Shown here: piece after piece, positions 2,227 through 58,093 of the stretch
How the letters are laid out: the number at the start of each line of letters is the position of its first letter
How positions within the stretch are numbered: position 1 is the stretch's first letter
From: a phage
Direction: 5' to 3' (one strand)
Assembly (NCBI GenBank): GCA_014161675.1
Contig: GCA_014161675.1_4760.1
Length of the DNA: 64,000 nt
Made by a program: the position numbers and the translations under genes
The notes under the pieces: model-generated
The model's database searches: none
Told to the model about the DNA's origin: nothing
The model's input: only the letters and a program-made list of their open reading frames with translations

Positions 2227-2519
2227 TGGCTGGATTATCCTACGATAAAGCTAAAACTACAGGGCACGGAAACTACCCACCTACGGTAATTAATGCAACT
2301 CAATCTAAGGTATTTGTTGAGGGTATCCCTGTATTAGTCGAAGGAGACCCAATTACACCACATACAAAAACAACAAAGCCTTATGATACACACGGGGGAA
2401 CTACGGTCGCCAGTACCCCGAAAGTATTTGTTACCGGAAAGAAAGCAATTCAAATGGCAGATCGTATTAGCTGTGGCGATACCGTCGCTATGGCATCACC
2501 GAAGGTATTCATAAAATGA
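2226..2519 (+). CDS. 5.4: gp5.4-like PAAR-type spike tip protein
   Basis: 97 aa, same length as T4 gp5.4; start overlaps upstream stop (TAATG); position between 5.1 and gp6. Confidence 0.65.
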
Positions 2520-4420
2520 CAAAGCAAAAGATTACACAAATTCCTGATATTTTTAATGCTGCTACATTCGATGAAATTAAAAGCGCATTAACAGACTGGA
2601 TGAGAAACCAGGAAGAATTTAAAGATTTTGATTTTAATGGTGCTGGTATTAACGTATTGATGGACTTGCTCGCATATAACACTCTGTATATTCAGCAATT
2701 CGCTAACGCCGCGCTATATGAATCTTTTATCAGAACGGCAATTAAGCGTAGTTCAGTTGTTCAAGCCGCGCAAGATTTAGGATATTTGCCAGCAAGTAAA
2801 ACTAGTGCATCGACTACAATTATGTTGCACGTAACACATCCTCGAAATCCGGCAAGTATTCGAATCCCACGAGGAACTAAATTTATTGCAAGTGTGGATC
2901 GCCAGACTTCTTACCCGTTTGTGACTACAGAAGACGTTGTGAGCGTTTTAGGTTCAAATGGTTTATATACGCCTATGCTTAAAGTCGCACAAGGTCGTAT
3001 TGTTCGTACAGAAATGTTATTTGATCCGAAGAAACAAATTCTGATCCGCGATCCTGATATTGACCGCGCTCAGGTTAAGTTGTGGGTAGATGGTGCTGAA
3101 TGGAAAGACTGGACGCGAGAAAGTATTGTTAATGCAACTGGCGCTAGTAATATTTTCTATATGCGTGAAACCGTAGACGGACATACTGAAATTTTCTTTG
3201 GTGAGGGTGAATCAACTTTATCTGCCGCTGGCGGTGCACTGGAAGCAAATTATATTGGTGGACTTAAGCCGTCAACTGGTGCTAATATTGTTATCGAATA
3301 TATCAGCACTAAAGGCGCGGAAGCAAACGGTTCAGTTAATTTCACATACGCGGATACATTGGCATCAATTTCTATTGTTAAAATTATTGAGAATCCGACA
3401 AATGATCGTGATTATGTCGGTGCAGATGGTGGTGGTGATCCTGAATCAATCGAACGTATCCGTGAACTTGCTCCGGTAATGCGTGAATCTCAGCGTCGTT
3501 GTGTGACTGCTTCCGACTATGAGGCTTTTGTGTCTAGCCGTTTTGGTAGTATTGTTCAGGCGGTACAATGTTTCACCGACCGAGAAAAACCGGGTTATGC
3601 TTTTGTTGCTGTTAAGCCTAAATCTGGCTTGCGCTTGACAACCGTTCAAAAAGAAGATATGCGGGATTATCTGGCAAAATATAACCTTGCCCCTATCACG
3701 CCGAGCATCATTGACCCTAACTATCTGTATATTAAACAGAATATTAAAGTTTCCTATTCAATCAACGACTTGTCAGAATCAGAGCAGTGGTTGCGCGGTG
3801 CGGTTATTGATCAGATTGATGCATATTATACCGACGAAGTGGAAATTTTTAACCAGACATTTAGTAAGTCTAAAATGCTTGCTCGTATTGACAAAGCTGA
3901 TGTATCTGTGATAGGTTCTAGTGCAGAAATCGAGATGGTGCGAGAGATCGACAACTTCTATAAAGCACCGATGGCGGGAATCAAGTTTTTAAACCAGTAT
4001 AAGAGCGGAATCAAGTCTAGTTCATTCAACTTCGAAAAGGACGACAAGCAATATCCGATCCATTATGTAAGTACAGAAATGAACAAAGAATCCGGTTTAG
4101 CTAAATTGCTGGTTGGACCTTTCCCTGTTGATTCTACAATCGCTTTACCGCACTATTCCGGCACTGATTTTGATAAAGAGGTTATTGACGGGGCGGACCT
4201 ATACTTTGAGGTTGGAGAGGTTCAGCATTATGACGACCTTATTTCATGGGATCTGGGTAAACTGAATATCAATAGCGATCGCTTTACTGGTTCATATATT
4301 GAGTTGACAGCTAAACCGATTGCTGATAACATCTTTACTAAAGACGGTTCTTTGATCGTGTTTGAAAACGATCTCCGTCCTCAGTACACAACTATTAGTC
4401 TGGAGGCAATTGCTCAATGA
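2516..4420 (+). CDS. 6: gp6 baseplate wedge protein
   Basis: 634 aa (T4 about 660); synteny 5.4-6-7-8; start overlaps upstream stop. Confidence 0.8.
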
Positions 4421-46036: not shown

Positions 46037-46968
46037 TGTTTGATTTAAATGACTTTAACGAACAAGCCGCTAACCTTGACTTTCAGCGATCTAACTTATT
46101 CAGCGTGGCATTTGCCACCACTCCAAGTAATAAGACACAAGCGATCCTAGAAAGTATGGGTGGTGCGGTATATGATATTATACCAAATGCATTAAATGAC
46201 TATTTCGGGATTACTCGTGGTGATTATACTGACGCATTAACAAATCTTGCTGTACAGGGTGTTAGGCGTGCTGTTGATTCATCTGGTGTCAAAAAGTATC
46301 TTTTAGGTGCAATGTCATCCCGCGTAGTTCAATCTCTTCTGGGGCAATTTGATGTTGGTACGTATGCTCTTGACTGGTTCAATATGGCATATAAGACAAG
46401 CGGTCTTCTGGTGTATGCTGTTAAGGTTCCAGAAAACAGATTGAATTATGAAATGGACCGTAACCACAATGCGCCAAACATTCGAATTACCGGACGTGAT
46501 TTTGATCCGCTTGTATTGAGCTTTAGAATGGACTCTAGCGCATCAAACTATAGAGCAATGCAGGATTGGGTTAACTCAGTAGAAGACCCCGTTACAGGGC
46601 TTCGTGCGCTTCCTGTTGACGTTGAAGCAGATATTCAGGTCAACTTACATAACCGAATGGGAGTTCCTCACACGATCATGATGTTTAATGGTTGTGTTCC
46701 TGTTGGTGTGAGTGCACCGGAATTAAACTATGAAAACAACAACGAAATCACAACATTCGATGTTACTTTCGCATATCGTTCTATGCAAACTGGTGCTGTA
46801 GGAGAGCAAGCCGCGCGAGAATGGATTGAGGATAAGGCAATAAACGCAATAACAAACACTTTCGGCAATAATTTACTTGATAGTGGGTTATCTGCTGCTG
46901 GTAATGCTTTATCGCGTCTAAATGGCGTTGGTGGGCGTGTGGTGAATACTGTCACTAACTGGTTCTGA
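46036..46968 (+). CDS. 54: gp54 baseplate tail-tube initiator
   Basis: 310 aa; C-terminal 'EITTFDVTFAYRS' resembles the tail-tube-like end of gp19. Confidence 0.75.
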   Translation: MFDLNDFNEQAANLDFQRSNLFSVAFATTPSNKTQAILESMGGAVYDIIPNALNDYFGITRGDYTDALTNLAVQGVRRAVDSSGVKKYLLGAMSSRVVQSLLGQFDVGTYALDWFNMAYKTSGLLVYAVKVPENRLNYEMDRNHNAPNIRITGRDFDPLVLSFRMDSSASNYRAMQDWVNSVEDPVTGLRALPVDVEADIQVNLHNRMGVPHTIMMFNGCVPVGVSAPELNYENNNEITTFDVTFAYRSMQTGAVGEQAAREWIEDKAINAITNTFGNNLLDSGLSAAGNALSRLNGVGGRVVNTVTNWF

Positions 46969-46977
46969 TAAGCGAAA

Positions 46978-47001
46978 GGCGGGGATTATCCCCGCCTTTT
47001 T
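46978..47001. terminator. Terminator hairpin after gp54 (also ends the minus-strand lipoprotein gene)
   Basis: GGCGGGG-attat-CCCCGCC followed by TTTTT. Confidence 0.55.
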
Positions 47002-47485
47002 ATTTTGCTAAATCATTGCAATATTTTAGTGCCTTAGTTTGAAATTCTGCGCTGTTAAGTTCTTCATAACGGTCATAATCACCGTTTAATGCTGCCTTTC
47101 TTGCTTCTTGCTCTATCTGCATGTCAGACATGATAATACAGCGATCCCGTGCTTTCATCTTCTCAAGTTGTATAGACTCTTCTTTCTGCTTGCGCAATTC
47201 TTCTTGACGCTTCTTTTCTTCTTGTGCTTTCTCTTCCCGCGCTTCTTTGATTGCATCCTTGAACATCTGCGTTTGTGGTTCTAAACCAACTTTAACGCGA
47301 TCCACGTCTCGACGTTCCATTTTAGAAATAAAGCACGATTCGATCTGATCATCACTTGCATATGCTGCTTTACATTCACGAAGCAAGAAAACCGGATCTG
47401 ATTTAGCATTCATCATAGCTTCCATGTTGGCACAACCAGTAAGCATGAATGCAGCCGCAAGACCAATCAGTTTAATCATTTTCAT
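47000..47485 (-). CDS. predicted lipoprotein
   Basis: Signal peptide with lipobox 'LTGC'; charged helical region; last gene of the alt operon. Confidence 0.55.
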   Translation of the reverse strand: MKMIKLIGLAAAFMLTGCANMEAMMNAKSDPVFLLRECKAAYASDDQIESCFISKMERRDVDRVKVGLEPQTQMFKDAIKEAREEKAQEEKKRQEELRKQKEESIQLEKMKARDRCIIMSDMQIEQEARKAALNGDYDRYEELNSAEFQTKALKYCNDLAK

Positions 47486-48306
47486 TTAGTCACCTCACCG
47501 AAAATTGTAAATTGTCTACGATTCTCATCACCGAAAGATTCTACTACGTCGTTTACCTTGACGCAAGTCCCGCGCGGTAAAATTACTTCACATTCGCAAG
47601 GATTCCATGCAATTGACCCAACAACAAAACCTTTATGATCTTTTACGTCAATTACCCATGATACATTACAAGAATGTTGCATCTTTCCGGTCATTGATTC
47701 ATATCGATTCTCACAATAAAGGCTAGTGCTGTTTGATAACCATCCTCCAAAGATGATCGGTGTCATGCTGGTAGATACAAAGTTTTTAAAGGTAAACTCC
47801 TTATCTTCAATGATACGCTCTATTGTCTGAATGTCAAGATGTTGACCGCGATAAAGAGTACCGTTTAACTTTTCGGTTTTATCCATGACGCAATCCATCA
47901 AATCGACAATCTCTGATATCTCATCGGTCATGTCTTCTTCCCCTAAGAGAGCACCATTTACCCATTCGTATTGCTCAGACACATAATCACAGATTGCATT
48001 ATATTCTGCTGGGGTTATGTTGTTATGTTTGTAATGTTTGAATACATTATCTCCAAAGTCTTCGGAGTGTACTTCATACATCACATTAATGATTTTCTTG
48101 ACAAATCCATAATCTTGTGTCTCACGCTCAAGGAAGCGGATAACCTTCACATAATCATCAAAGTTAATCTGATCGCTGATCATCTCAGTGATCATGTAAC
48201 CATTAATACCCTCAATGTCATATGTTTCGATGTAATTATCCATACGTTCCATCATTGATTCGCGTGATTCTTCCGAAAGACGAAAATCCTGTAATTTCTT
48301 GAACAT
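47482..48306 (-). CDS. ADP-ribosyltransferase, Alt-like paralog (R-S-E class)
   Basis: 'LYRGQ', 'FVSTS', 'CECEVILPRG' (R, STS, ExE motifs); shares 'IFGGW' with Alt; GGGAGG RBS. Confidence 0.7.
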   Translation of the reverse strand: MFKKLQDFRLSEESRESMMERMDNYIETYDIEGINGYMITEMISDQINFDDYVKVIRFLERETQDYGFVKKIINVMYEVHSEDFGDNVFKHYKHNNITPAEYNAICDYVSEQYEWVNGALLGEEDMTDEISEIVDLMDCVMDKTEKLNGTLYRGQHLDIQTIERIIEDKEFTFKNFVSTSMTPIIFGGWLSNSTSLYCENRYESMTGKMQHSCNVSWVIDVKDHKGFVVGSIAWNPCECEVILPRGTCVKVNDVVESFGDENRRQFTIFGEVTK

Positions 48307-48330
48307 TTTAAACCTCCCATATAACAGAAA

Positions 48331-48362
48331 ACGGGGGCTAGTATAAAACTAGTCCCCGTTTG
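48331..48362 (-). terminator. Hairpin between alt and alt-like gene
   Basis: 14-bp stem AAACGGGGGCTAGT/ACTAGTCCCCGTTT; U-rich tract follows on the minus strand. Confidence 0.45.
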
Positions 48363-48385
48363 AGTCAACCATTATTTCTTAAAAA

Positions 48386-50437
48386 TTACATTTTAAATTT
48401 ATCTGGCATTGCGTCTACAGATACCAGATCAGCGATAAGCTGACGTAGAGTTGCCTTATCTGCTTTCTTACGTTCGGTTTTAGCTTCGCTAATGAAGCTG
48501 GAGAAAGACAGGTCAGAAGCAGGTTTAATAACACCTTCACGGATGAATGCATCACCGTCCGCGATCATCTCGCCAGATTCTTGTAATGCTGCCAGTTCAT
48601 TTTTGTTCATAATATGTGCCTCAATGTAATAAGTTTCTTGTGAATCCGTCGATGCCGTAGCACGAGTTACCGTATCAAAGGATAACACAACACCGCGAGG
48701 AAGTAAAATCTCGCATTCTTTGTAAGCAAATGCTTTGTTACCTACTGGCAATACAGGGATGTTTTCCGCGCCAGCAATGGAGAAAGCAACATTAGCGCCA
48801 CCTTCACCGCGAGAGCCAGCCATAGAGTCAACACCAGCAACGGCACTAGCCACGTTTGCATTCCAGCCGCCAAAAATGTTAGGTGCAAGGGAAGTGCTCA
48901 CATAGTTTTTAAAGTAAAACGCTTTTTGCTTACGTGCAGTTTCCCACATTTGCGACCGGAAGTCCATACCACGATACAGAATAGTACCCGGATCAAGTTT
49001 AACGCCATAGTTGGAGAAGGCATTATCCAGTGCATCGCACATCTTGACCAATTCTTCTGGATCTGCGATGCCTTCAAACTCTTCCAGCTTACGGTCGGTT
49101 AGGAAGTTGTTCATATTGATGTATGCTGCATCGGCATATTCGCTCAACACAAAACCTTCCGCGCCTGGCAGATCAAGATCAATATCTGCCATCATTTCAC
49201 CCATGTTGCTAGCAATTGCTTCAAACATACCGGAGGCAACATTACGTAGGGCATCGGTTTTAATCTGGGTGATATGACTACGCAGCATTTCAGCTTTTAC
49301 ATCTGCTGGCATAGACTGGTCTACTCGATCCATTGCCAGGGCGGTGATCTTGTTTTCGAATACTTCCTCGCTCATGATTTCTTTTAAGCGTTTGACCGAG
49401 GCTGCGATAACTTCCGCAGACAATGGATCATATTGATCCTGAACTTTTACCAGTTCGCTTACTGCGTATTTTGCATCGGCTTCGCTTTCAAAAATAGTAC
49501 GCATGAAACCATAGCGAGTGATAATATCACTTGTCCAGTCATTCAGAGAACGAGCGGTTGAACGTTCTAAGGCTTGACGGTCAATCAGAGTATTAAACTG
49601 TTTCTTAGGTTCTGCTTCGGTGATATCTTCTTCCGGTTTAAGATTAATTTTTTCTGGATGATTCACATAGTCGCTGTTATAGGTCGCTTGAGTTTTCAGC
49701 ATTTCTTCTTTAGTCAAACGAGATTTAGCCGCTACGCGTTGTTCTGCTTCCGCGTTTCGTTCTTCTTCTGACACAAGACTAGCCGCATATGCCTCATCTT
49801 TAGTCAGAGATTCACCAGTAGCCTTAGATACCCAGCGATCACCTAAATCACTTTCTACTTTAGTGAACAAGGATTCATCAAGTTTAATCCCTTTAATCTT
49901 ATCAATCGCCATCCCGCGACGCTTGACAACAACTAAAGCGATCTTTTTGCTGGTCATTACTTCCTGCTGGAATACTTCAAACTTCGGTGTACGACGCACC
50001 AAACGCTCTATAACGCGCTTAACCAGTTCGGTCTTACCTTTCATGCGGGATACGTTAAAACGGAACATAACAGCGTCTAATTGCGCTTTACGGGCTGTTT
50101 CCATAACCACATCAAAAGCACTTGACATAACTGCAATCGGGTTATCGCCTAGACCATTTTTAAGCTGTACAATACGACCGCTTTTGTTCATTTCGCACAG
50201 TACAACATGTGCGGTCTTGTCACCCATACGAATGATTTTAGGTGTTTTGTTGGTGAAGTTACAAAGACGGACAATCACATCTTTATCGCGTGTCTGTACT
50301 GCAAAAAGCTGTTTAGGATTCTGCTTAGGCTTTAAGCACTGTACCGGAGCAATCCTGCCAAAGTTTTCTTCCTCTTCCGTCAACAGCCATTTCTCGAAAG
50401 ATTCAATCATTAGATCGTCGATTTCTAAGTTAAACAT
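48386..50437 (-). CDS. alt: Alt ADP-ribosyltransferase
   Basis: 683 aa (T4 Alt 682); 'ILYRGM', 'YVSTS', 'ECEILLPRG'. Confidence 0.8.
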   Translation of the reverse strand: MFNLEIDDLMIESFEKWLLTEEEENFGRIAPVQCLKPKQNPKQLFAVQTRDKDVIVRLCNFTNKTPKIIRMGDKTAHVVLCEMNKSGRIVQLKNGLGDNPIAVMSSAFDVVMETARKAQLDAVMFRFNVSRMKGKTELVKRVIERLVRRTPKFEVFQQEVMTSKKIALVVVKRRGMAIDKIKGIKLDESLFTKVESDLGDRWVSKATGESLTKDEAYAASLVSEEERNAEAEQRVAAKSRLTKEEMLKTQATYNSDYVNHPEKINLKPEEDITEAEPKKQFNTLIDRQALERSTARSLNDWTSDIITRYGFMRTIFESEADAKYAVSELVKVQDQYDPLSAEVIAASVKRLKEIMSEEVFENKITALAMDRVDQSMPADVKAEMLRSHITQIKTDALRNVASGMFEAIASNMGEMMADIDLDLPGAEGFVLSEYADAAYINMNNFLTDRKLEEFEGIADPEELVKMCDALDNAFSNYGVKLDPGTILYRGMDFRSQMWETARKQKAFYFKNYVSTSLAPNIFGGWNANVASAVAGVDSMAGSRGEGGANVAFSIAGAENIPVLPVGNKAFAYKECEILLPRGVVLSFDTVTRATASTDSQETYYIEAHIMNKNELAALQESGEMIADGDAFIREGVIKPASDLSFSSFISEAKTERKKADKATLRQLIADLVSVDAMPDKFKM

Positions 50438-50483
50438 TTTATATCCTCTAGTTGATAACCTATAAACCTATATTTATGAAAAA

Positions 50484-50498
50484 GGGGCTTAACGCCCC
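50484..50498 (-). terminator. Terminator hairpin (minus strand)
   Basis: GGGGC-ttaac-GCCCC; U-run on the minus strand; downstream of ORF 50508-50720. Confidence 0.45.
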
Positions 50499-50507
50499 CC
50501 CCATTTA

Positions 50508-50720
50508 TTATAATGCACCATCGAGCAATTGCTCTAAGGTGTATCCTGAATAGTCTTTTTCAATCAGGGTATATTTTCCTACTCGTTTAATCCAGCCACG
50601 CATTTCAACGTATTCTGCGTAGTTGATGGTGCGCGTTGTTCCATCTTCCAGTAATGCAGTACCGATTTCGTTAATGCGGTCATAAGTTACGTCGGTAATG
50701 ATGATTTCGATGTTAGCCAT
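50508..50720 (-). CDS. hypothetical early protein
   Basis: 70 aa behind promoter/leader unit 1. Confidence 0.5.
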   Translation of the reverse strand: MANIEIIITDVTYDRINEIGTALLEDGTTRTINYAEYVEMRGWIKRVGKYTLIEKDYSGYTLEQLLDGAL

Positions 50721-50756
50721 TTGATACTCCTTAGTAGTTCGTTTCGGTATGGGTGT

Positions 50757-50785
50757 ATTATGATATACACCATCTGTTATGTCAA
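50757..50785 (-). promoter_or_regulatory. Early sigma70-type promoter unit 1
   Basis: Minus strand TTGACA, 17 bp, CATAAT; inverted repeat GGTGTAT/ATACACC spans the -10. Confidence 0.5.
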
Positions 50786-50791
50786 CAACTT

Positions 50792-50971
50792 TTAGAACAT
50801 TTTTGAAATTAATTCTGCTTTGATTTCGCAGAGAACATCTAAAGATTTCTCGTCACCCGCTTTTGCTGCTTCTGCTTGCATTTTTGAAATGGCTTCAATG
50901 TCAGTGCAATTATAAGCCGCTTGAACTTTAGCGATTGCGATGATTGCCGATTCGATGGTTAAGTGTTTCAT
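50792..50971 (-). CDS. small hypothetical early protein (59 aa)
   Basis: Hand-translated 'MKHLTIESAIIAIAKVQAAY...'; behind promoter unit 2; below the ORF-track cutoff. Confidence 0.45.
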   Translation of the reverse strand: MKHLTIESAIIAIAKVQAAYNCTDIEAISKMQAEAAKAGDEKSLDVLCEIKAELISKMF

Positions 50972-51003
50972 GTTTGATTCTCCTTTCGTTTCGGTATGTG
51001 TGT

Positions 51004-51032
51004 AGTATAGGGGATCACCGATCCCCTGTCAA
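51004..51032 (-). promoter_or_regulatory. Early promoter unit 2 with palindromic spacer
   Basis: TTGACA, spacer GGGGATCGGTGATCCCC (17-bp palindrome, two GATC), TATACT. Confidence 0.55.
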
Positions 51033-51040
51033 CAACTTTT

Positions 51041-51559
51041 TTAGTTATTTTTTAATTGCTCATCTTGCAATAGGGCAATCACATGCTGGCGATGTTCTTC
51101 CGATTGAGGCACACCGAAAAAGTTTGTTTTGTAGAAATACTCTAATCGGTCTTCTCGTGTGCTCTCTTCCATCATGATCGCGGGTAGTCCGAGATTTCGG
51201 AAACGTCGCTTTTCTGCTGGCGTAAAATCACTGTAATACAACATAGAATCATCATTACCAGCAATGCTAAACTCATCCTTCATAAAGGAGAATATTGCGT
51301 TTAAACGCTGTTTACCGTCCACGATTTCGATCTCATAGCGAGAGCCATCATCAATCTTAGCCATTGCGATAGCACCAACCGGAAAATCATTAATCAGGTT
51401 TTCGATAAACATACGTTTGTTTTCTGTGTCCCATACTAAAGGACGCTGATAATCTGGGTTCATGTTGATATAGCCATCTTCTAACCACGCCTCATAAACA
51501 GAGATTACAAAGTTTTTAGTATTGGTATAGTAACGGCGTTTAGGTGTTAAACGGTTCAT
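51041..51559 (-). CDS. DUF262 / ParB-like (GmrSD N-domain-like) protein
   Basis: 'YQRPLVWDTENK...IVDGKQRLNAIFSFM' resembles the DUF262 DGQQR region; ATG 51559 with AGGAGA RBS preferred over TTG 51595. Confidence 0.5.
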   Translation of the reverse strand: MNRLTPKRRYYTNTKNFVISVYEAWLEDGYINMNPDYQRPLVWDTENKRMFIENLINDFPVGAIAMAKIDDGSRYEIEIVDGKQRLNAIFSFMKDEFSIAGNDDSMLYYSDFTPAEKRRFRNLGLPAIMMEESTREDRLEYFYKTNFFGVPQSEEHRQHVIALLQDEQLKNN

Positions 51560-51560
51560 G

Positions 51561-51893
51561 TTATAGTCTCCTGAATGGATCATCACGTAAATCAATATCT
51601 TTTAAGAACTCATCCCATGAATGGCGGATATTGTTCTTAATTCTCCAGATAAGAGCAGGGATTGAACGCTCTCCCATCTGGAAGTATGGATCATATGATC
51701 CGTATGCCCAATATGCTACTACAATTCCACAATCAGCGCAATAGTATTCTATTTCACTTGCTGGCGACCAAAGTCCATCAATATGATCGGTGATCTTGCT
51801 TTCGATGTTATGGCTATGACAATCAGGGCAACGGATGCAATGACCTTGTTTATCGTAATTTGACGTTAGCGAATACTTAAACAATCTCATCAT
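51561..51893 (-). CDS. zinc-ribbon protein
   Basis: 110 aa with 'CIRCPDC' and 'CADC' Cys pairs. Confidence 0.5.
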   Translation of the reverse strand: MMRLFKYSLTSNYDKQGHCIRCPDCHSHNIESKITDHIDGLWSPASEIEYYCADCGIVVAYWAYGSYDPYFQMGERSIPALIWRIKNNIRHSWDEFLKDIDLRDDPFRRL

Positions 51894-52606
51894 AGATCCT
51901 TATTTGCTTCAAATACTGCCTTTGCGAATCCTCGCGGGGTAAGTGACCTGATAGTCTTTGTTTTCGTTCCTTTCCCGCCTAGCTTAGAATGCTGTTTACT
52001 GTACCCTTTATTAATCTGCAACGGTTTCTTTTCTGGCATTATAAAGCCTTGTCCGGTCCATAAGCAAGTCTTTTTCGGGTACATATCACGGGCGGCGATA
52101 TACTCAGGAAAAGTAGGATGTTTATCATCTTCCGGCAAATAACCGCCATATTCCCACGGGTGGAACATGTAATCAGGCTTACGCCACATGCTAGAGATAA
52201 CGCTTACAGGATTCTCTATCATGTAGGGAACTCCTAGCCATTCACCCAAATAAGCGGTTATTTTAGCTGCCCTTACATCATGAACTTGAATCAATGGTCC
52301 TTGTTCTCGTTTCTTTCGTTCAAAGTGTGCAGCGCCACTAACAGCTAAATTGGTGCACGGTGGGAATGCAAAGATAATATCCGGTTTCCCCCATTCAAGG
52401 TCCATTGCTCTTTCCAGCCAATTCAAATCAATCCAGGTGTTTACATAGGTAATGTTTGGATGTTCAAATCTGGTATTATACTTTTTGTATGTGCCGTGGT
52501 CGCCATCATCAGCATTAAAGCAGATCACCTTATGACCTGCTTTAGCCCATTCTAGCCCCATTATCCCCGATCCGTCAAAGTTACAGAATATTAATTTTTG
52601 TTTCAT
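51890..52606 (-). CDS. compact C5-cytosine methyltransferase-like protein
   Basis: Motif I 'LIFCNFDGSGIMG', motif IV 'FAFPPCTNLAVSG', motif VI 'MIENPVSV', motif X-like 'IRSLTPRGFAKAV'; only 238 aa. Confidence 0.55.
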   Translation of the reverse strand: MKQKLIFCNFDGSGIMGLEWAKAGHKVICFNADDGDHGTYKKYNTRFEHPNITYVNTWIDLNWLERAMDLEWGKPDIIFAFPPCTNLAVSGAAHFERKKREQGPLIQVHDVRAAKITAYLGEWLGVPYMIENPVSVISSMWRKPDYMFHPWEYGGYLPEDDKHPTFPEYIAARDMYPKKTCLWTGQGFIMPEKKPLQINKGYSKQHSKLGGKGTKTKTIRSLTPRGFAKAVFEANKDL

Positions 52607-52848
52607 ATACGCCCCTTTAATCCAACACAGATTTTAGAAGGTTCTTTGCCGTGCCACATTAAGTAAAGTCCGTTAATGCGGCCTTGTTTTGTATATGATT
52701 CTTTTCTGATCTTCTTATAGTGTCGTGTTTCCTCAACTGATTGTTTAGAATACCAATCATAAAGGAAGAGGCACAAAGGCCAACCATTAGCGGCCTTAAT
52801 GCAGTTATTAAGAAATTCCTTATTGCGTTTAATTAATTTTCTTTTCAC
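52603..52848 (-). CDS. hypothetical protein
   Basis: 81-aa ORF in operon; start overlaps upstream stop. Confidence 0.45.
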   Translation of the reverse strand: MKRKLIKRNKEFLNNCIKAANGWPLCLFLYDWYSKQSVEETRHYKKIRKESYTKQGRINGLYLMWHGKEPSKICVGLKGRI

Positions 52849-53096
52849 GCTGCCCCCATTGGTTTGATAGTAACAGAATCTAAAAGACCTTTGTTAGCCA
52901 GTTCGCGGCAAGTTTTCAGATCCGCAACTTCCCAGCCAGCCGCAATCAGGTTATCAATCAGGCTGTTAGCAACTTCTTCGCTCATGAAAGAGCACTGTTT
53001 GCCGATGGTGTAGCGTACACGCTGTAATTTCAGTTTACGGAAGCCTTTAACGTTCAGGTCTTTAGCGATTTTCTTTGCGGTTTCGATGTTAGCCAT
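52845..53096 (-). CDS. hypothetical protein
   Basis: 83-aa ORF, first gene behind promoter unit 3. Confidence 0.5.
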   Translation of the reverse strand: MANIETAKKIAKDLNVKGFRKLKLQRVRYTIGKQCSFMSEEVANSLIDNLIAAGWEVADLKTCRELANKGLLDSVTIKPMGAA

Positions 53097-53136
53097 TGTT
53101 TGATTCTCCTAAGTGGTATCTCGTCTTGATGGTTGT

Positions 53137-53165
53137 ATTGTAGGGGAGTTATCCTCCCCTGTCAA
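53137..53165 (-). promoter_or_regulatory. Early promoter unit 3 with palindromic spacer
   Basis: TTGACA, spacer GGGGAGGATAACTCCCC (17-bp palindrome), TACAAT. Confidence 0.55.
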
Positions 53166-53179
53166 CACTTTTTATAAAA

Positions 53180-53347
53180 TTATTTGTTAATTTCTGGTGC
53201 GTTGCTAGGATAGTAACCTTCTTTAACTCCGAGGTATTTCGCAACCATCCCTACAATCTTCTGTGCTACTACAATGTCAAATTTCAGATAATCTTCGCCG
53301 TGGGTTTCAATGATATATGCTTCACATGCTGCTTTAGTCTCGAACAT
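53180..53347 (-). CDS. small early protein (55 aa), paralog of 56438-56605
   Basis: 'MFETKAACEAYIIETHGEDYLKFDIVVAQKIVGMVAKYLGVKEGYYPSNAPEINK'; below the ORF-track cutoff. Confidence 0.55.
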   Translation of the reverse strand: MFETKAACEAYIIETHGEDYLKFDIVVAQKIVGMVAKYLGVKEGYYPSNAPEINK

Positions 53348-53380
53348 TTTGATTCTCCTATTTCGTTTCGGTATGTGTGT

Positions 53381-53409
53381 ATTATAGGGGATCTCCTGAT
53401 CCCCGTCAA
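53381..53409 (-). promoter_or_regulatory. Early promoter unit 4
   Basis: TTGACG, palindromic spacer GGGGATCAGGAGATCCC, TATAAT. Confidence 0.5.
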
Positions 53410-53423
53410 CAACTTTTTTAAAA

Positions 53424-53705
53424 TTATTCGTGATTAGTTTCGATGTTGTGCATTTTGCACCAGTTCAGCCAATCACCCAGATCCTGATAGCTAATGCTTT
53501 TATCTGCTGCCATCGTTTTTGTCTTGATACCCATATGTGCGTTATGAGTAAGCATTTTTACAGTGAACTCAATTTTATCACCTTTAGCTTTAACATCAAC
53601 CAGTTTGGTCCACTGGCTACCAGCGCCGCGAATGTTCATACCAACGATGTTTCCGATGTATGCTTCTTTGTTTTTCAGGATTTCGGTTGCTTTGATGAAT
53701 TTCAT
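53424..53705 (-). CDS. hypothetical early protein
   Basis: 93-aa ORF behind promoter unit 5. Confidence 0.5.
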   Translation of the reverse strand: MKFIKATEILKNKEAYIGNIVGMNIRGAGSQWTKLVDVKAKGDKIEFTVKMLTHNAHMGIKTKTMAADKSISYQDLGDWLNWCKMHNIETNHE

Positions 53706-53738
53706 TTTTGATTCTCCAGTTCGTTTCGGTATGTGTGT

Positions 53739-53768
53739 ATTATGCTATGTTCTTACTTTGGTGTCAAC
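53739..53768 (-). promoter_or_regulatory. Early promoter unit 5
   Basis: TTGACA, about 18 bp, CATAAT, conserved leader ACACACATACCGAAACGAACTGGAGAATC. Confidence 0.5.
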
Positions 53769-53775
53769 AACTTTT

Positions 53776-54045
53776 TTAGATATTTTCAGAAATAAATTTT
53801 AAAACTTGACGTAAATGTTTCTCATCTTTGATGGTAGCCGGAAGTTCTTCTTTTACTTCCTGTGCAAGATAGATATTTCCGTTCCAAGTGAAAGATCCGT
53901 CTTCGTTTACGCGATAGCTGAACATCCACTCGCAATCATTTTCGATTTCATATACACACAGAAGGGTGTAATCGTTAAAGCTATTGATTTCAAGGTCGAA
54001 GCCGTGACGTTTTGCAAAGTTGGTAGTGGTTTTAGTCAGTGTCAT
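53776..54045 (-). CDS. hypothetical early protein
   Basis: 89-aa ORF behind promoter unit 6. Confidence 0.5.
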   Translation of the reverse strand: MTLTKTTTNFAKRHGFDLEINSFNDYTLLCVYEIENDCEWMFSYRVNEDGSFTWNGNIYLAQEVKEELPATIKDEKHLRQVLKFISENI

Positions 54046-54085
54046 TGTTTGATTCTCCTAAGTGGTATCTCGTTTCGATGTGTGT

Positions 54086-54114
54086 ATTATGCTATAGGCC
54101 GGATCTGGTGTCAA
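54086..54114 (-). promoter_or_regulatory. Early promoter unit 6
   Basis: TTGACA, 17 bp, CATAAT. Confidence 0.5.
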
Positions 54115-54170
54115 CAACTTTTTTAAAAATTTGGGCAATAAAAAGCCGACACTAAGGTCGGCTAATAAAA

Positions 54171-54479
54171 TCATTTAGACAAATAATCATTCTGTGCAAT
54201 CCGGTCAGCATGTTCCGGCGTTACGTCAATCGCAATCACTTTAACGCGTGCTTTCTTGCGACCTGGGTTTTCTCGTAACCAGTGCTCATGACCGTGAACA
54301 TTTTTATACTGCGATGCTTCTTCGAAGGTACGGATCGGACCTGGGTAATCAGCGTAAAGGATCTCTAGATCTTCGGTGATGTAAAAATATACATCGTAAT
54401 TGCTGTTCTCTAGCTTAAGCAGAGACTTTCGGAACATTGGGAGATTTTCGCGGGTAAATTCAAAGATATTATCTTTCAT
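54171..54479 (-). CDS. HxHW-family small protein (paralog 1)
   Basis: 'FYITEDLEI...HGHEHWL...VIAIDV'; GAGGATAA RBS. Confidence 0.55.
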   Translation of the reverse strand: MKDNIFEFTRENLPMFRKSLLKLENSNYDVYFYITEDLEILYADYPGPIRTFEEASQYKNVHGHEHWLRENPGRKKARVKVIAIDVTPEHADRIAQNDYLSK

Positions 54480-54507
54480 AGTATTATCCTCAATAGTTGG
54501 ATGAAAA

Positions 54508-54524
54508 GGGGGCTTAACGCCCCC
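54508..54524 (-). terminator. Terminator hairpin (minus strand)
   Basis: GGGGGC-ttaac-GCCCCC; same core as hairpins at 16583 and 50484. Confidence 0.4.
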
Positions 54525-54529
54525 ATATA

Positions 54530-54817
54530 TTAAAACAGCCCTTCCTGTACACCGTAGTAGAGTTCGTCACTGATAATTTCATTAATGCGACGGTGTGCAT
54601 ATTCCTGATTTGCGAAGTTGTCAGCAAGTTCTACTTTAGTTTCGCCGTCATGAGTCCATTTAGTGATAACTTTACCATCTGCAAATTTGAAGTTGAACTC
54701 TTTAGCTACTGCATCGCGTACCAGACGTGCGAACTTGTTGTTACGGATTGCATTGTCTGTTTCGTTTGCAGCGTGAGCAAATTTGTTAACTTTCAGAGTG
54801 ATAGTAATGTATGCCAT
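54530..54817 (-). CDS. hypothetical early protein
   Basis: 95-aa ORF behind promoter unit 7. Confidence 0.5.
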   Translation of the reverse strand: MAYITITLKVNKFAHAANETDNAIRNNKFARLVRDAVAKEFNFKFADGKVITKWTHDGETKVELADNFANQEYAHRRINEIISDELYYGVQEGLF

Positions 54818-54863
54818 AATTTGATTCTCCTAGTTAGAAAGTGTATATCGTTTCGATGGGGAT

Positions 54864-54892
54864 ATTATGCTATATCCCCGATCCGGTGTCAA
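54864..54892 (-). promoter_or_regulatory. Early promoter unit 7
   Basis: TTGACA, 17 bp, CATAAT; inverted repeat GGGGATAT/ATATCCCC spans the -10. Confidence 0.5.
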
Positions 54893-54898
54893 CACTTT

Positions 54899-55192
54899 TT
54901 ATAAAATAATTTTTTGATATTTTTCTATGATGTTCGTGTAAGTCACATCAACCGCTAGCACCGTTGCTTCGAATCCACCGTTTAGCCAATGGCTATGATC
55001 ATGATCGTGAAAGAAACCTAGACCAGTACGAAGACCTTCTTTATATTCTGCGCGTACATTCAGTTTGTCGTCGATAAACAGATAAAACCATGAATTTTTA
55101 CTAGGATTGATGATACAACCTTTCAGATTAGGGAGAATATCACGACTAAGAATAAACTTATCACCTACTTTGAACATAATATTAGTCCTCAC
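54899..55192 (-). CDS. HxHW-family small protein (paralog 2)
   Basis: 'FYLFIDDKLNV...HDHDHSHWL...VLAVDV'. Confidence 0.55.
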   Translation of the reverse strand: MRTNIMFKVGDKFILSRDILPNLKGCIINPSKNSWFYLFIDDKLNVRAEYKEGLRTGLGFFHDHDHSHWLNGGFEATVLAVDVTYTNIIEKYQKIIL

Positions 55193-55502
55193 TTATAAGG
55201 TCAAACCAATTGTTTTTCGCATAATGCTTAATGCGTGCTTGATCTGCTTCCGCTGGTGATAGATTCCATGCAACCACTACAACTTCTGACGCATCGTCAT
55301 CCGTTTCTGATACCCAATGATTGTGATTCATACAGTTATTTGCTATCGAGTGAGCAAATGATTTCATCACTGGAGACGTATAATCATAGTAACGGATTTT
55401 CAGATTTTCATCAACGTACAAATAGATCGTATAAGGTTTATATTCAGTAACCAGTAACAGACAGTTACGCAATTCTGGGAAAATATTTTTAGTTAATTTC
55501 AT
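55182..55502 (-). CDS. HxHW-family small protein (paralog 3)
   Basis: 'YLYVDENLKI...NHNHWV...VVVVAWNL'. Confidence 0.5.
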   Translation of the reverse strand: MKLTKNIFPELRNCLLLVTEYKPYTIYLYVDENLKIRYYDYTSPVMKSFAHSIANNCMNHNHWVSETDDDASEVVVVAWNLSPAEADQARIKHYAKNNWFDLISED

Positions 55503-55716
55503 ATTCTAGTTCTCCGTAATACACGGTAATCCATTTTTCTTCATACTTTGTATCTTTCCAACACACAATCCCGTTTACTGTGCAATCTTTGGAATTGACG
55601 AATGATTCATATTGTTCTGCATCTTCCATCATTGCATGAGCGGTCTTTTCATCGAATATATCGCAGATCGCTTTATATGCTCGATAATCTTTAAATTTGC
55701 TCATAATTAAGACCAC
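55489..55716 (-). CDS. small early protein, tandem duplicate A
   Basis: 'MSKFKDYRAYKAI...MMEDAEQ...GIVCWKDTKYEEKWI' paralogous to the adjacent ORF. Confidence 0.5.
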   Translation of the reverse strand: MVLIMSKFKDYRAYKAICDIFDEKTAHAMMEDAEQYESFVNSKDCTVNGIVCWKDTKYEEKWITVYYGELEYEIN

Positions 55717-55922
55717 TCAAGAGTTTTTGAAAACACATCTATCCATTGTTGAGTATATGCGGTTTCTTTCCATGATACAATACCAGTCGAATAATGGTTT
55801 TTGTTTCCAGAAAAGGACGGGCATTTTGAGGCATCTTCCATCATCTTTTCGGCGAACTCTGGTGCGTATACTCGCAGGATCTGTTGATATGCTTTGTATT
55901 CTTTAAATTTGCTCATAATCAT
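55707..55922 (-). CDS. small early protein, tandem duplicate B
   Basis: 'MSKFKEYKAYQQI...MMEDASK...GIVSWKETAYTQQWI'. Confidence 0.5.
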   Translation of the reverse strand: MIMSKFKEYKAYQQILRVYAPEFAEKMMEDASKCPSFSGNKNHYSTGIVSWKETAYTQQWIDVFSKTLEWS

Positions 55923-56181
55923 TCACTACCTTATCAGCTTCTTTTGTTGTTTTTACATCAACTGCGATAACTCGTAAAGGTTCGTCATGGTTCCACCAGT
56001 GGTCATGAATATCAGCTTGTGATTTATCACCAAAGGAATCACGAATATCATTTTTACATTTATAGCTAATGTGACCTTCATAGTCAACATAAAGGTAATT
56101 ATCGAAAATCGGCGTTTTTAAGATCATACCGAAAAATCTTTCTTTGTGTGTCTTATCCAGCGTTGCAGTAATTCGCATCAT
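55903..56181 (-). CDS. HxHW-family small protein (paralog 4)
   Basis: 'YLYVDYEGHI...HDHWW...VIAVDV'. Confidence 0.55.
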   Translation of the reverse strand: MMRITATLDKTHKERFFGMILKTPIFDNYLYVDYEGHISYKCKNDIRDSFGDKSQADIHDHWWNHDEPLRVIAVDVKTTKEADKVVNDYEQI

Positions 56182-56193
56182 AATATATTCCTC

Positions 56194-56373
56194 TTAGAAA
56201 GGGATGGTCATTTCTTGAGCTTGTACGTTCTCGTTAGGATTAAACTTCATCCAGCCGATATTGTCTACCAGCATATGCACATTTTTATCATATCCTACGT
56301 GGGTAGTCAATACTGTATGTGCTTTACCTTCAATGATGAGTTCCATGTACTTCTGAACTTCGATAGCTTTCAT
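56194..56373 (-). CDS. small hypothetical early protein (59 aa)
   Basis: Hand-translated 'MKAIEVQKYMELIIEGKAHTVL...'; behind promoter unit 8. Confidence 0.4.
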   Translation of the reverse strand: MKAIEVQKYMELIIEGKAHTVLTTHVGYDKNVHMLVDNIGWMKFNPNENVQAQEMTIPF

Positions 56374-56405
56374 TTTGATTCTCCGTTTGTTGTCTTGATG
56401 GGAGT

Positions 56406-56434
56406 ATCTTACTACTCCCTTTAATCATTGTCAA
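56406..56434 (-). promoter_or_regulatory. Early promoter unit 8
   Basis: TTGACA, 17-bp spacer with GGAGTA/TACTCC inverted repeat, TAAGAT. Confidence 0.45.
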
Positions 56435-56437
56435 CTA

Positions 56438-56605
56438 TTATTTGTTAATTTCTGGTGCGTTGCTCGGATAGTAACCTTCTTTAACACCCAGATATTTTGC
56501 GACCATTCCGGTGATCTTCTGTGCTACTACGATATCGAATTTCAGGTAATCTTCACCGTGGTTTGCTACAATGTATGCTTCGCATTCTGCTTTAGTCTGG
56601 AACAT
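56438..56605 (-). CDS. small early protein (55 aa), paralog of 53180-53347
   Basis: Internal ATG at 56605 gives 'MFQTKAECEAYIVANHGEDYLKFDIVVAQK...', near-identical to the 53180-53347 product. Confidence 0.55.
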   Translation of the reverse strand: MFQTKAECEAYIVANHGEDYLKFDIVVAQKITGMVAKYLGVKEGYYPSNAPEINK

Positions 56606-56638
56606 TTTTATTCTCCCATATCTCGTTGGTATGTGTGC

Positions 56639-56668
56639 ATTATAGGGGATCACCGATCCCCTGTCAAC
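56639..56668 (-). promoter_or_regulatory. Early promoter unit 9 with palindromic spacer
   Basis: TTGACA, GGGGATCGGTGATCCCC, TATAAT; spacer identical to units 2 and 10. Confidence 0.55.
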
Positions 56669-56672
56669 AACT

Positions 56673-56966
56673 TTATAATGCTTTATATGCGTATTTCATA
56701 AATTTGTCTGCCACTTCATTGGCATGTTCAGATTCTACGCCTGATTCGAGAACAATAGCTAGGTCGGTTTCGTCATTCCCGCCGTACCAATGATTTGATG
56801 TTCGATTTTTTTCAATTGGAAATTGGTCACTTTTATCTGTGCGACAAAATACATCTAAATGCTCGTCGATGTAAAAGATCCAATCTTCATAAAGAATAAC
56901 GGTATTAGCCAGATTTTTATTGCCTTCAACGAAAGGTTCGGCTACAAACAAATTAGTATGTTCCAT
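56673..56966 (-). CDS. HxHW-family small protein (paralog 5, divergent)
   Basis: 'IFYIDEHLDV...SNHWY...LAIVLESG'. Confidence 0.45.
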   Translation of the reverse strand: MEHTNLFVAEPFVEGNKNLANTVILYEDWIFYIDEHLDVFCRTDKSDQFPIEKNRTSNHWYGGNDETDLAIVLESGVESEHANEVADKFMKYAYKAL

Positions 56967-57023
56967 AGTATTTTCCTCAATTTGTGGGAGAGTATTGCCC
57001 CTCCCGATGTCTGTTATATTACA

Positions 57024-57344
57024 TTACACAAAATGGCGTTTCAATGCTTCTTTTGCGGTTCCGCTAAGACTTTCGATCTCGCCTGGCATAACATCAACTG
57101 CCAGAACTTCTACAACATCCTCTGACCCCAACCAGTGAGTATGACCTTTGTAGAACTTGATAACCAGACTACCTTCCTCATCCCATTTAACGCTATCGCT
57201 AGCCCACCACACATCACCGTCGATAAAGTTGATGTAAAGCACACTACGCCACATTGAATTAATTACTTTCAATACTGCGCCTTTCATATCTTCCACGGTG
57301 TGGTCTTCCATTTTGAAGACCTCGCCTACCTGAACTTTTGCCAT
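57024..57344 (-). CDS. HxHW-family small protein (paralog 6)
   Basis: 'LYINFIDGDV...GHTHWL...VLAVDV'. Confidence 0.55.
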   Translation of the reverse strand: MAKVQVGEVFKMEDHTVEDMKGAVLKVINSMWRSVLYINFIDGDVWWASDSVKWDEEGSLVIKFYKGHTHWLGSEDVVEVLAVDVMPGEIESLSGTAKEALKRHFV

Positions 57345-57361
57345 TTAGTCACCTCTCTTTA

Positions 57362-57541
57362 TTACATAACAATCACGCCAGCCGTTGAAAGTTGATGTTT
57401 CAACTGAGCATTTTCTGCTACTGTCAAATCAATGATTTCTTGTGACGCTGCAATCATATAGCCATTGGTGATATTGTTTTGCATCAGTTCAATGGTTTCT
57501 TCGTTGTAGCGGATTTTAGCGATGATTTCGTTGAAGTTCAT
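57362..57541 (-). CDS. small hypothetical early protein (59 aa)
   Basis: Hand-translated 'MNFNEIIAKIRYNEETIELMQNNITNGY...'; behind promoter unit 10. Confidence 0.4.
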   Translation of the reverse strand: MNFNEIIAKIRYNEETIELMQNNITNGYMIAASQEIIDLTVAENAQLKHQLSTAGVIVM

Positions 57542-57575
57542 GTTTGATTCTCCTAGTTCGTTTCGGTATGTGTGT

Positions 57576-57604
57576 AGTATAGGGGATCACCGATCCCCTG
57601 TCAA
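57576..57604 (-). promoter_or_regulatory. Early promoter unit 10 with palindromic spacer
   Basis: TTGACA, GGGGATCGGTGATCCCC, TATACT; conserved leader to AGGAGAATCAAACATG. Confidence 0.55.
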
Positions 57605-57616
57605 CAACTTTTTGAA

Positions 57617-58093
57617 TTATTTTTCTTGATGCTCGCGATCGTACTTTTCGAAATAAAATTCTACTGGCTGGTCGTGGATTGACAGCAAGCCAAAGCGTTT
57701 AGCCGCTCGCAATCCCATATTGCGCTGAATGTACTTCTGGAAGTTCTCGCGTATACACTTACGCCAGGATTCTAAGCCCATGCAGCTTTTATAAAGATTG
57801 CATTGCACACACGCCGGATTCATGTTATCAAGTATATCATGCTCCGGTTTATGCATTCCTACAACCTTATACTTCCACGATCCATCATCATTACGGGCAA
57901 TTCGTCCATTTTCATCATAGACTACCTTTGAGCGTCGCAATACTGGTTTGATGTGGTCTGCGTGCCAGCGATCCCCTAGTTCCTCGCCACAATAGGCACA
58001 ACGTCCACCATATTTCATTTTCAGGATCTGGCGTTGATCTTTCTTTGACAATTTTTTAGGTTTAGGGGCTTTCGCCCCTTCATTATCACACAT
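57617..58093 (-). CDS. HNH endonuclease (putative free-standing homing endonuclease)
   Basis: 'CAYCGEEL...HADHIKP...N...CVQCN' HNH/zinc motif; start overlaps ligase stop. Confidence 0.65.
   Translation of the reverse strand: MCDNEGAKAPKPKKLSKKDQRQILKMKYGGRCAYCGEELGDRWHADHIKPVLRRSKVVYDENGRIARNDDGSWKYKVVGMHKPEHDILDNMNPACVQCNLYKSCMGLESWRKCIRENFQKYIQRNMGLRAAKRFGLLSIHDQPVEFYFEKYDREHQEK

Follow-up and report, generated by a model that had tools for sequence, protein, structure and literature searches.

The alt region of an RB49-like phage genome most likely consists, as far as its sequence tells, of two transcription units, a late one for the full-length ADP-ribosyltransferase (ART) Alt and a separate early one for a pair of genes encoding a short ART and a lipoprotein. 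The region belongs to contig GCA_014161675.1_4760.1 (assembly GCA_014161675.1), a 64,000-nucleotide (nt) stretch of phage DNA called here the window, in which three minus-strand open reading frames (ORFs) adjoin the plus-strand baseplate genes 29, 48 and 54. These ORFs are the orthologs of RB49p184 (alt), RB49p183 (the short ART) and RB49p182 (the lipoprotein) of phage RB49 (NC_005066). The original prediction, made from the sequence alone, had placed the three genes in one operon. Their arrangement on the same strand, two ART paralogs and then a lipobox protein, stands, but a putative composite element made of a terminator and a sigma-70 promoter splits them. Since alt is bracketed by a terminator and a late-promoter-like box upstream and by this composite element downstream, two transcription units are likely rather than one operon. 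Some read-through from alt into the short ART gene is possible and would then represent true attenuation.

Over positions 46900-50600, 59 GenBank phages of the genus Krischvirus (RB49, phi1, JSE and GEC-3S among them) match the window from end to end with a DNA identity of 95% or more, which for the 30 records listed is 98.6-99.1%. By this identity, the window is DNA of a Krischvirus, an RB49-like T4-type coliphage, and its three genes are those of RB49 and of 58 other Krischvirus records, with no substantive difference. The paralogy of RB49p183 with alt, the early-promoter prediction, the genes and the type of element had all been made public before; hence the finding is already known and changes no current concept. 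To this, modest additions are made here: the three-gene order and the composite element are deeply conserved, the short-ART lineage is monophyletic and old, the enzyme complement consists of Alt, a ModB-like protein and an Alt-derived form, and the lipoprotein gene contains a cassette.

Transcription signals on either side of alt

The 79-nt gap between the two ART genes (48307..48385, minus strand) is filled by a putative PeSL-type composite element. Read from 48385 to 48307, it comprises an A/T-rich stretch (TTTTTAAGAAATAATGG), a -35 box, a stem-loop overlapping the -10 box, a T-run and a Shine-Dalgarno (SD) sequence, GGGAGG at 48318..48313, which precedes the ATG of the short ART. The promoter boxes TTGACT (48368..48363) and TATACT (48345..48340), 17 nt apart, agree with the sigma-70 consensus at 10 of 12 positions. 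They lie on top of the hairpin (48361..48329), in which AAACGGGG-A-CTAGT pairs with ACTAG-C-CCCCGTTT and is followed by TTTTCTGTT. A strong hairpin at 48331-48362 had been pointed out in the original prediction as a possible attenuator. It is present, and attenuation agrees with the terminator activity of other PeSL stem-loops (PMC2839356), but the sigma-70 promoter on it had been overlooked: the hairpin is one half of a composite with that promoter and no simple attenuator. A terminator in this gap is annotated in the TB34 record, and an early promoter, Pe:112388, was predicted in the same gap of RB49 by Nolan et al. 2006 (PMC1524935).

Judged by folding energy alone, the hairpin is only modestly unusual (-18.2 kcal/mol by itself; -21.7 kcal/mol for the 91 nt around it, z = -1.9, a fold of equal stability being reached by 8 of 200 shuffles), and a search of 46800-50700 against Rfam at E <= 0.1 gave no match. 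What is convincing is that diverged relatives have it almost unchanged, and the conservation of the whole composite element is the strongest evidence that we have. Five diverged relatives were recovered from metagenomes, the lineages compared being L009/L010, L011, L013 and L014/L015. Their short ARTs are 41-48% identical to that of the window and their Alts 42-48%, the value of 42% being that of the truncated L011 Alt, while gp48 and gp54 of L009 and L011 are 70-81% identical to their counterparts. The order alt, short ART gene, lipobox protein gene and then gp54 on the opposite strand is found in L009/L010, L011 and L013; in L014/L015, alt and the short ART gene are followed by the contig end. 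In L009, L013 and L014, the gap contains TTGACA-17-TATACT with ACGGGG-(2 nt)-CAG TTTTATA CTG-T-CCCCGTTTTCT. The composite element is kept almost base for base in four lineages, with four distinct but nearly identical hairpin sequences, whereas the flanking coding DNA is 47-57% identical (window versus L009).

PeSL cassettes of RB49 and phi1 associate a strong sigma-70 promoter with a G-run/C-run stem-loop that lies mostly between the two boxes or over the -10 (Arbiol et al. 2010, PMC2839356). RB49 counts 51 of them, and promoter and terminator activity were measured for PeSL193/192, 206/205 and 211/210 only (PMC2839356). The alt/short-ART gap displays the same components: after an A/T-rich stretch come sigma-70 boxes close to the consensus and 17 nt apart, with a G-run/C-run stem-loop over the -10, and then an SD and ATG, the whole filling the space between two genes; it corresponds to the subclass ‘overlapping the -10 box’ (PMC2839356). 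It does not look like a shuffling site, since its place is the same in four of the five diverged lineages that were compared. We interpret the hairpin and promoter of the gap as a PeSL-type terminator/early-promoter composite, of which both activities are predicted.

From 50.7 to 57.6 kb, the minus strand carries about ten further strong sigma-70 matches, and in most of these a G-run/C-run stem-loop lies on the promoter. Dense, near-identical PeSL cassettes of the form AAAAAGTTGTTGACAGGGGATCGGTGATCCCCTATACT...ACACATACCGAAACGA...GGAGAATCAAA-ATG precede small ORFs throughout 50700-57700 (minus strand; promoters for example at 51032, 53165, 56667 and 57604), and this series is what has been called the hyperplastic region in RB49 and phi1. 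The PeSL cassettes of these two phages were reportedly treated by Comeau et al. in 2014, and early 5' ends of RB49 are said to have been mapped by Desplats et al. in 2002.

Two details of the gap may be mentioned. The C-run of the hairpin 3' arm (48334-48338, minus strand) has five C, one more than the four of RB49 and G37-3, a difference that turns an A.C mismatch into a one-base bulge. The short-ART SD GGGAGG (48313-48318, minus strand) and the GGAGAA SDs of many PeSL-driven ORFs contain GGAG, at which the RegB endoribonuclease cleaves early mRNAs of T4. RB49 encodes regB and, as an idea only, early messages with GGAG SDs may be shut off by RegB.

On the other side of alt, the G/C hairpin GGGGC-GTTAA-GCCCC, within an 8-G run and followed by TTTTT, occupies 50479..50502 (minus strand) and closes the upstream early ORF 50720..50508. 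It resembles an intrinsic terminator and would insulate alt from upstream early transcription. The TransTerm terminator ‘alt<--RB49ORF185c’ was listed at RB49 114488-114504, and a terminator upstream of alt is kept in five of six T4-type genomes (Nolan et al., PMC1524935); the TB34 record annotates one as well. T4 and L009 have a hairpin and T-run at the same place. The G-run of the window terminator (8 G versus 4 C) looks prone to slippage.

Directly after this hairpin comes CATAAATA (50471..50478, minus strand), a late-promoter-like box 33 nt before the alt ATG that matches the T4 late box TATAAATA at 7 of 8 positions. T4 has the canonical TATAAATA at the equivalent position, also directly after its hairpin, and L009 has AATAAATA; the leaders of alt are similar, CTAGAGAGGATAT in T4 and CTAGAGGATAT in the window. 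Among the listed T4 late promoters, the commonest deviation concerns position -13 (PMC2988020). In T4, alt is late by both transcriptome and proteome, while ModA and ModB are early (PMC9697503). A late promoter, Pl:112065, was predicted inside ORF183c and is the best-scoring one of RB49 (15.9; PMC1524935). The sequence at that position (RB49 112023-112065, minus strand, about 48016-48058 of the window) reads CTTTGGAGATAATGTATTCAAACATTACAAACATAACAACATA and contains no TATAAATA-like box, so that this promoter is probably a false positive or a coordinate slip.

Alt and the short ADP-ribosyltransferase

The alt gene (48386..50437, minus strand) encodes a 683-amino-acid (aa) protein which, as the original prediction had proposed, is a full-length Alt: it aligns with T4 Alt (682 aa) over its full length (27% identity, 695 aligned columns, E 6e-61) and matches phrog_802 ‘Alt-like’ from end to end (E 2e-179, profile positions 2-674). 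The catalytic domain is recognized by Pfam PF03496 (ADPrib_exo_Tox; 37.3 bits, cut-off 23.4). Alt homologs carry PF26846 (Tevenvirinae_ADPRT) together with PF03496, the former being present on nearly all homologs of about 620-716 aa according to precomputed Pfam hits, and the 683-aa ORF has this architecture. A sequence search of the PDB with Alt gave no hit. T4 Alt, a packaged and injected arginine mono-ADP-ribosyltransferase, is encoded at the same place beside gene 54, behind a hairpin and a late box arranged in the same way; by orthology, Alt of the window is most likely made late, packaged in the head and injected. A 200-aa, GTG-started ORF (49863-50465, plus strand) runs antisense to alt, has no Pfam match and is almost certainly spurious.

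The short ART gene (47482..48306, minus strand) encodes 274 aa. The protein does have, as proposed, its own R, STS and ExE motifs (LYR153G, S178-T179-S180 and E238-C-E240), and its ‘PIIFGGW’ is shared with the ‘PNIFGGW’ of Alt; PF03496 gives 59.3 bits (E 4e-16), well over the same cut-off. An alignment of 50 sequences, comprising short forms and full-length Alts, shows no variation at R153, S178, T179, E238 or E240; the conservation of S180 is 90% or higher, and P183, at the start of ‘PxIFGGW’, is nearly invariant. An E-x-E rather than a Q-x-E motif predicts arginine specificity, as in the distinction between C3 and the iota and VIP2 enzymes. From these motifs, the short ART is predicted to be an enzyme with an intact arginine-type R-S-E active site; as a guess, its target would be RNA polymerase alpha or another host protein. 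A target other than that of Alt, as suggested in the original prediction, is plausible.

The AlphaFold2 model (pLDDT 87.8, pTM 0.85) confidently predicts a C3/Vis-like R-S-E fold. Foldseek retrieved 118 PDB matches at E <= 0.001, of which the top 50 listed are all ART toxins, headed by Vis, C3bot, CDTa, iota Ia and Certhrax (E ~1e-10, TM ~0.6 on the target). The catalytic motifs are also alike. Yet identity with the C3, Vis, iota-Ia and CDTa toxins is 13-20%, and the phage protein carries some 95 additional residues in a helical region at its N-terminus and lacks any partner for secretion or translocation. A PDB sequence search gave marginal matches (E 0.07-0.55) to a ‘PAAR repeat-containing protein’, to the ‘65 kDa virulence protein’ (SpvB) and to Vis; the first of these entries is presumably Tre1, an ART effector of the type VI secretion system.

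The short ART covers positions 330-602 of the 674 of phrog_802. It lacks the N-terminal ~330 aa of Alt and PF26846, hence the architecture of a full-length Alt, and also the C-terminal tail kept by the proteins P0007 and P0008 and by all Alts. The strong divergence from Alt claimed earlier is real: identity with Alt of the same phage is 29% over the catalytic region, BLAST aligning only 109 aa at 37%. Over this region, identity among short ARTs is 46-90% but never exceeds 38% with a full-length Alt; the cognate Alts are 47-53% identical among themselves and 28-31% to the short form. According to these comparisons, the short ART is an old, maintained paralog of the catalytic half of Alt. A recent tandem duplication of the neighbouring alt was considered and rejected because the protein is no closer to its own Alt than to that of T4, the BLAST match being even better with T4 Alt (E 9e-23) than with its own (E 1e-16).

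In 59 Krischvirus records the short ART is conserved with an identity of 97% or more, mostly 100%, and among GenBank phages it is confined to these records at this threshold. Its family is small, with seven clusters of 271-288 aa among 5.8 billion proteins. RefSeq describes RB49p183 as ‘ADP-ribosyltransferase, similar to C-terminal part of T4 Alt’, and Nolan et al. 2006 grouped RB49ORF183c, 44RRORF188c and T4 alt.-1/alt.-2 as paralogous alt duplications (PMC1524935). NCBIfam and PADLOC returned nothing meaningful for Alt, the short ART or the lipoprotein.

With the T4 proteins ModA and ModB, the short ART shares its size class (200-274 aa), the R-S-E active site and a predicted early, de novo expression. 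It differs from them by its descent from the catalytic domain of Alt and by the lack of BLAST-detectable similarity (the best E value in BLASTP being 3.7). Next to srd, RB49 carries RB49p014, a different gene that is ModB-like; this is its only Mod-like gene, and tblastn of T4 ModA against RB49 gave no hit at E <= 0.01. With this single Mod-like gene and no match to ModA, Krischvirus phages would possess, like T4, three ARTs. Those of T4 are Alt, ModA and ModB; those of Krischvirus are of two origins, a packaged Alt, a ModB-like protein and an Alt-derived short form.

Downstream of alt, T4 has alt.-1, alt.-2 and alt.-3 with no intervening terminator or promoter, in contrast to the window, where a catalytic-half paralog and a lipoprotein gene lie behind a PeSL. 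T4 alt.-1 and alt.-2 are 56-62% identical copies of Alt residues 1-117 (T4 123065-123450). The alt/gene 54 interval retains N-terminal alt copies in T4 and a catalytic-half copy in Krischvirus, which may be what each kept of a tandem duplication of alt in an ancestor; phage 44RR was reported to have a full-length second alt (PMC1524935). Another separation of the two halves is seen in L016, a more distant T4-like metagenomic contig, where Alt is seemingly split into two abutting ORFs next to DNA ligase (2366-4386), the first of 356 aa without Pfam hit and the second of 316 aa with the ART domain and the C-terminal tail of Alt.

The lipoprotein gene

The third gene (47000..47485, minus strand) starts at an ATGA overlap with the stop of the short ART gene and encodes 161 aa. 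Its N-terminus, MKMIKLIGLAAAFMLTG|C, is a signal peptide ending in a canonical lipobox, L-T-G-C18, read from the sequence, so that the lipobox lipoprotein of the original prediction is borne out; the W115 and KFS-EC records also call p182 a (putative) lipoprotein. In nine aligned alleles, among them those with a mature part of only about 30% identity, residues 1-11 and 13-19 are invariant, as are C38, C51, C116 and C156. The lipobox reads LLTGC in L009, FLTGC in L011 and LFGC in L013. Ala at +2 predicts outer-membrane sorting according to the E. coli +2 rule and, together with the four conserved Cys, suggests an exported, outer-membrane-anchored, disulfide-bonded protein.

The structural model (pLDDT 88.7) is all-helical, with a helix of 62 residues. 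Pfam, NCBIfam and PADLOC gave no assignment, and PHROG offered no noteworthy match except its own family, of unknown function. A match to phrog_1119 (Cor; E 0.006) covers residues 1-45 only; with superinfection-exclusion lipoproteins of the Cor/Llp type, the resemblance is limited to the signal peptide, the mature domain being similar neither in sequence nor in fold. An exhaustive hidden Markov model (HMM) search of 1.84 billion representatives found 11 proteins of this family. A link of ORF182 to islands, plasmids or integrons, hinted at by Arbiol et al. (PMC2839356), was not reproduced: tblastn of the lipoprotein gave no match in 72,556 plasmids, and blastn of the short-ART/lipoprotein DNA (47000-48400) none in 5,426 E. 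coli genomes. A relationship with T4 alt.-3 was also rejected, no similarity being seen.

The mature part of the gene behaves as an allelic cassette (47030..47440, minus strand). Compared with G37-3 (L012), DNA identity falls to 14-54% inside ~47440-47030 and is 96-100% on both flanks, and an allele of about 30% identity occupies the same locus in 6 of 57 Krischvirus records. By this comparison, the mature domain has undergone a clean cassette replacement with a fixed signal peptide, a pattern which fits a specificity determinant and suggests, for example, an exclusion factor. The envelope-directed role put forward in the original prediction is plausible.

Between the lipoprotein gene and gp54 on the plus strand lies a bidirectional terminator (46974..47000; 12-bp stem with seven G-C pairs). 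It corresponds to the TransTerm terminator ‘54-><-RB49ORF182c’ of RB49 (PMC1524935), and a bidirectional terminator is annotated at this junction in the TB34 and G37-3 records.

Expression model and alternatives

We propose that alt is expressed late and that the short ART and lipoprotein genes are expressed early behind the PeSL-type composite, a model which we consider reasonably probable. Upstream early transcription would be shut off from alt by the hairpin and T-run, and alt would be transcribed late from CATAAATA, at the position of the T4 late promoter. Its transcript would carry the entire hairpin and T-run of the gap, and the stem-loop would stop or attenuate transcription arriving from alt. 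The sigma-70 -10 box would sit in the hairpin loop and 3' arm, and early transcripts would start at about 48332-48334, some 7 nt after TATACT and inside this arm. Because from such a start the hairpin cannot form, early transcripts should, by their geometry, escape termination. The early promoter would then drive the translationally coupled short ART and lipoprotein genes as far as the bidirectional terminator shared with gp54. Since it is devoid of the N-terminal half of Alt, the short ART would probably be made after infection, like ModA and ModB, and not be carried by the virion. The lipoprotein would probably be exported and lipid-anchored, in the outer membrane by prediction, and could exert there an envelope specificity function such as superinfection exclusion; this is the weakest step of the model.

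Several observations weigh against this model. A literature search found no transcript, protein or activity data for the locus in any Krischvirus. The early-promoter HMM score of Pe:112388 is low, 9.3 against 33-39 for neighbouring PeSLs (PMC1524935), and the gap element has none of the extended flanks common to PeSLs of the hyperplastic region. A simple consensus promoter scan was not enriched over shuffles (15 versus 12.5 +/- 3.2), and the terminator listing of that scan left out the alt/short-ART hairpin. In L011, the gap is reduced to 26 nt with no hairpin and no -10 box, and alt and the short ART gene are possibly cotranscribed there. On the late side, CATAAATA differs from the canonical box, and alt as a late unit stays inferred because Nolan et al. 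predicted no late promoter upstream of it (PMC1524935). As for the lipoprotein, searches of NCBIfam and PADLOC and by profile and structure revealed no informative relatives in sequence or fold.

The scan, the low score of Pe:112388 and the L011 gap would equally suit a single operon transcribed from a promoter upstream of alt, in which the hairpin only attenuates or stabilises the message and the promoter-like hexamers are incidental; the position of the genes on one strand with short gaps is also compatible with it. This is unlikely in our opinion, given that TTGAC[AT]-17-TATACT and the hairpin have both been kept in four lineages despite a divergence of about 50% in the flanking genes, and that the architecture, including the A/T-rich stretch and the SD, is that of PeSLs with measured promoter activity. 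Likewise, the location of the short ART gene directly downstream of a late gene would allow late read-through and packaging of its product, for instance via an interaction with Alt, so that two ARTs would be injected. The search for Krischvirus virion proteomics in the literature found none. Still less expected than a single operon, this possibility has against it the sigma-70 promoter and the architecture of the short form, which has neither the N-terminal Tevenvirinae_ADPRT region nor the C-terminal tail that every full-length Alt shows. The 274-aa ORF could also be a decaying remnant of an alt duplication with no enzymatic function, as the degenerate N-terminal fragments alt.-1 and alt.-2 at the same position in T4 and the second alt of 44RR might suggest. 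We find this very improbable for an ORF which is intact in the 59 phages at the identity given above, is retained at 41-48% identity in diverged lineages with invariant R, S-T and E-x-E residues, has a confidently predicted fold, and possesses its own conserved promoter and SD.

The role of the lipoprotein is more debatable. Instead of exclusion, it could serve in lysis or envelope remodelling, or in protection against an envelope-acting system of the host or of a competitor, in line with the absence of Cor/Llp similarity beyond the signal peptide and an uninformative fold search. We see this as a real, if lesser, possibility. Against it, RB49 already has spanin genes elsewhere (pseT.2, pseT.3); a specificity determinant accounts better than a housekeeping function in lysis for allelic cassettes behind an unchanging signal peptide; and the predicted early expression fits an exclusion gene.

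Returning to a late alt followed by an early gene pair, we tentatively suggest, as a rather speculative extension, that the short ART and the lipoprotein form a conserved early host-takeover module of Krischvirus-like phages. The ART would act in the role of ModA or on a new host target, in phages that have neither modA nor a middle mode of the MotA/AsiA kind; the lipoprotein would be an allele-specific determinant of superinfection exclusion; and the composite would keep a late packaged enzyme and its early paralog, 79 nt away, apart in time. If the early-unit model is true, the third ART is supplied differently in different T4-type lineages, and the short form offers a cheap target for finding host proteins that need early modification. 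The lipoprotein, as a candidate specificity factor, bears on the design of phage cocktails, Krischvirus phages being used therapeutically.

Beyond the alt region, another minus-strand gene of the window (51041-51595) encodes a 184-aa protein consisting of a GmrSD_N domain only (DUF262, ParB-like; Pfam E 5e-20). It lies just downstream of ORF 51890-52606, annotated as a DNA methyltransferase in RB49 and without Pfam hit here. Going by its domain content, the protein is the N-terminal half of a modification-dependent restriction enzyme on its own, and it could serve the phage as a nuclease or as a decoy against host defences.

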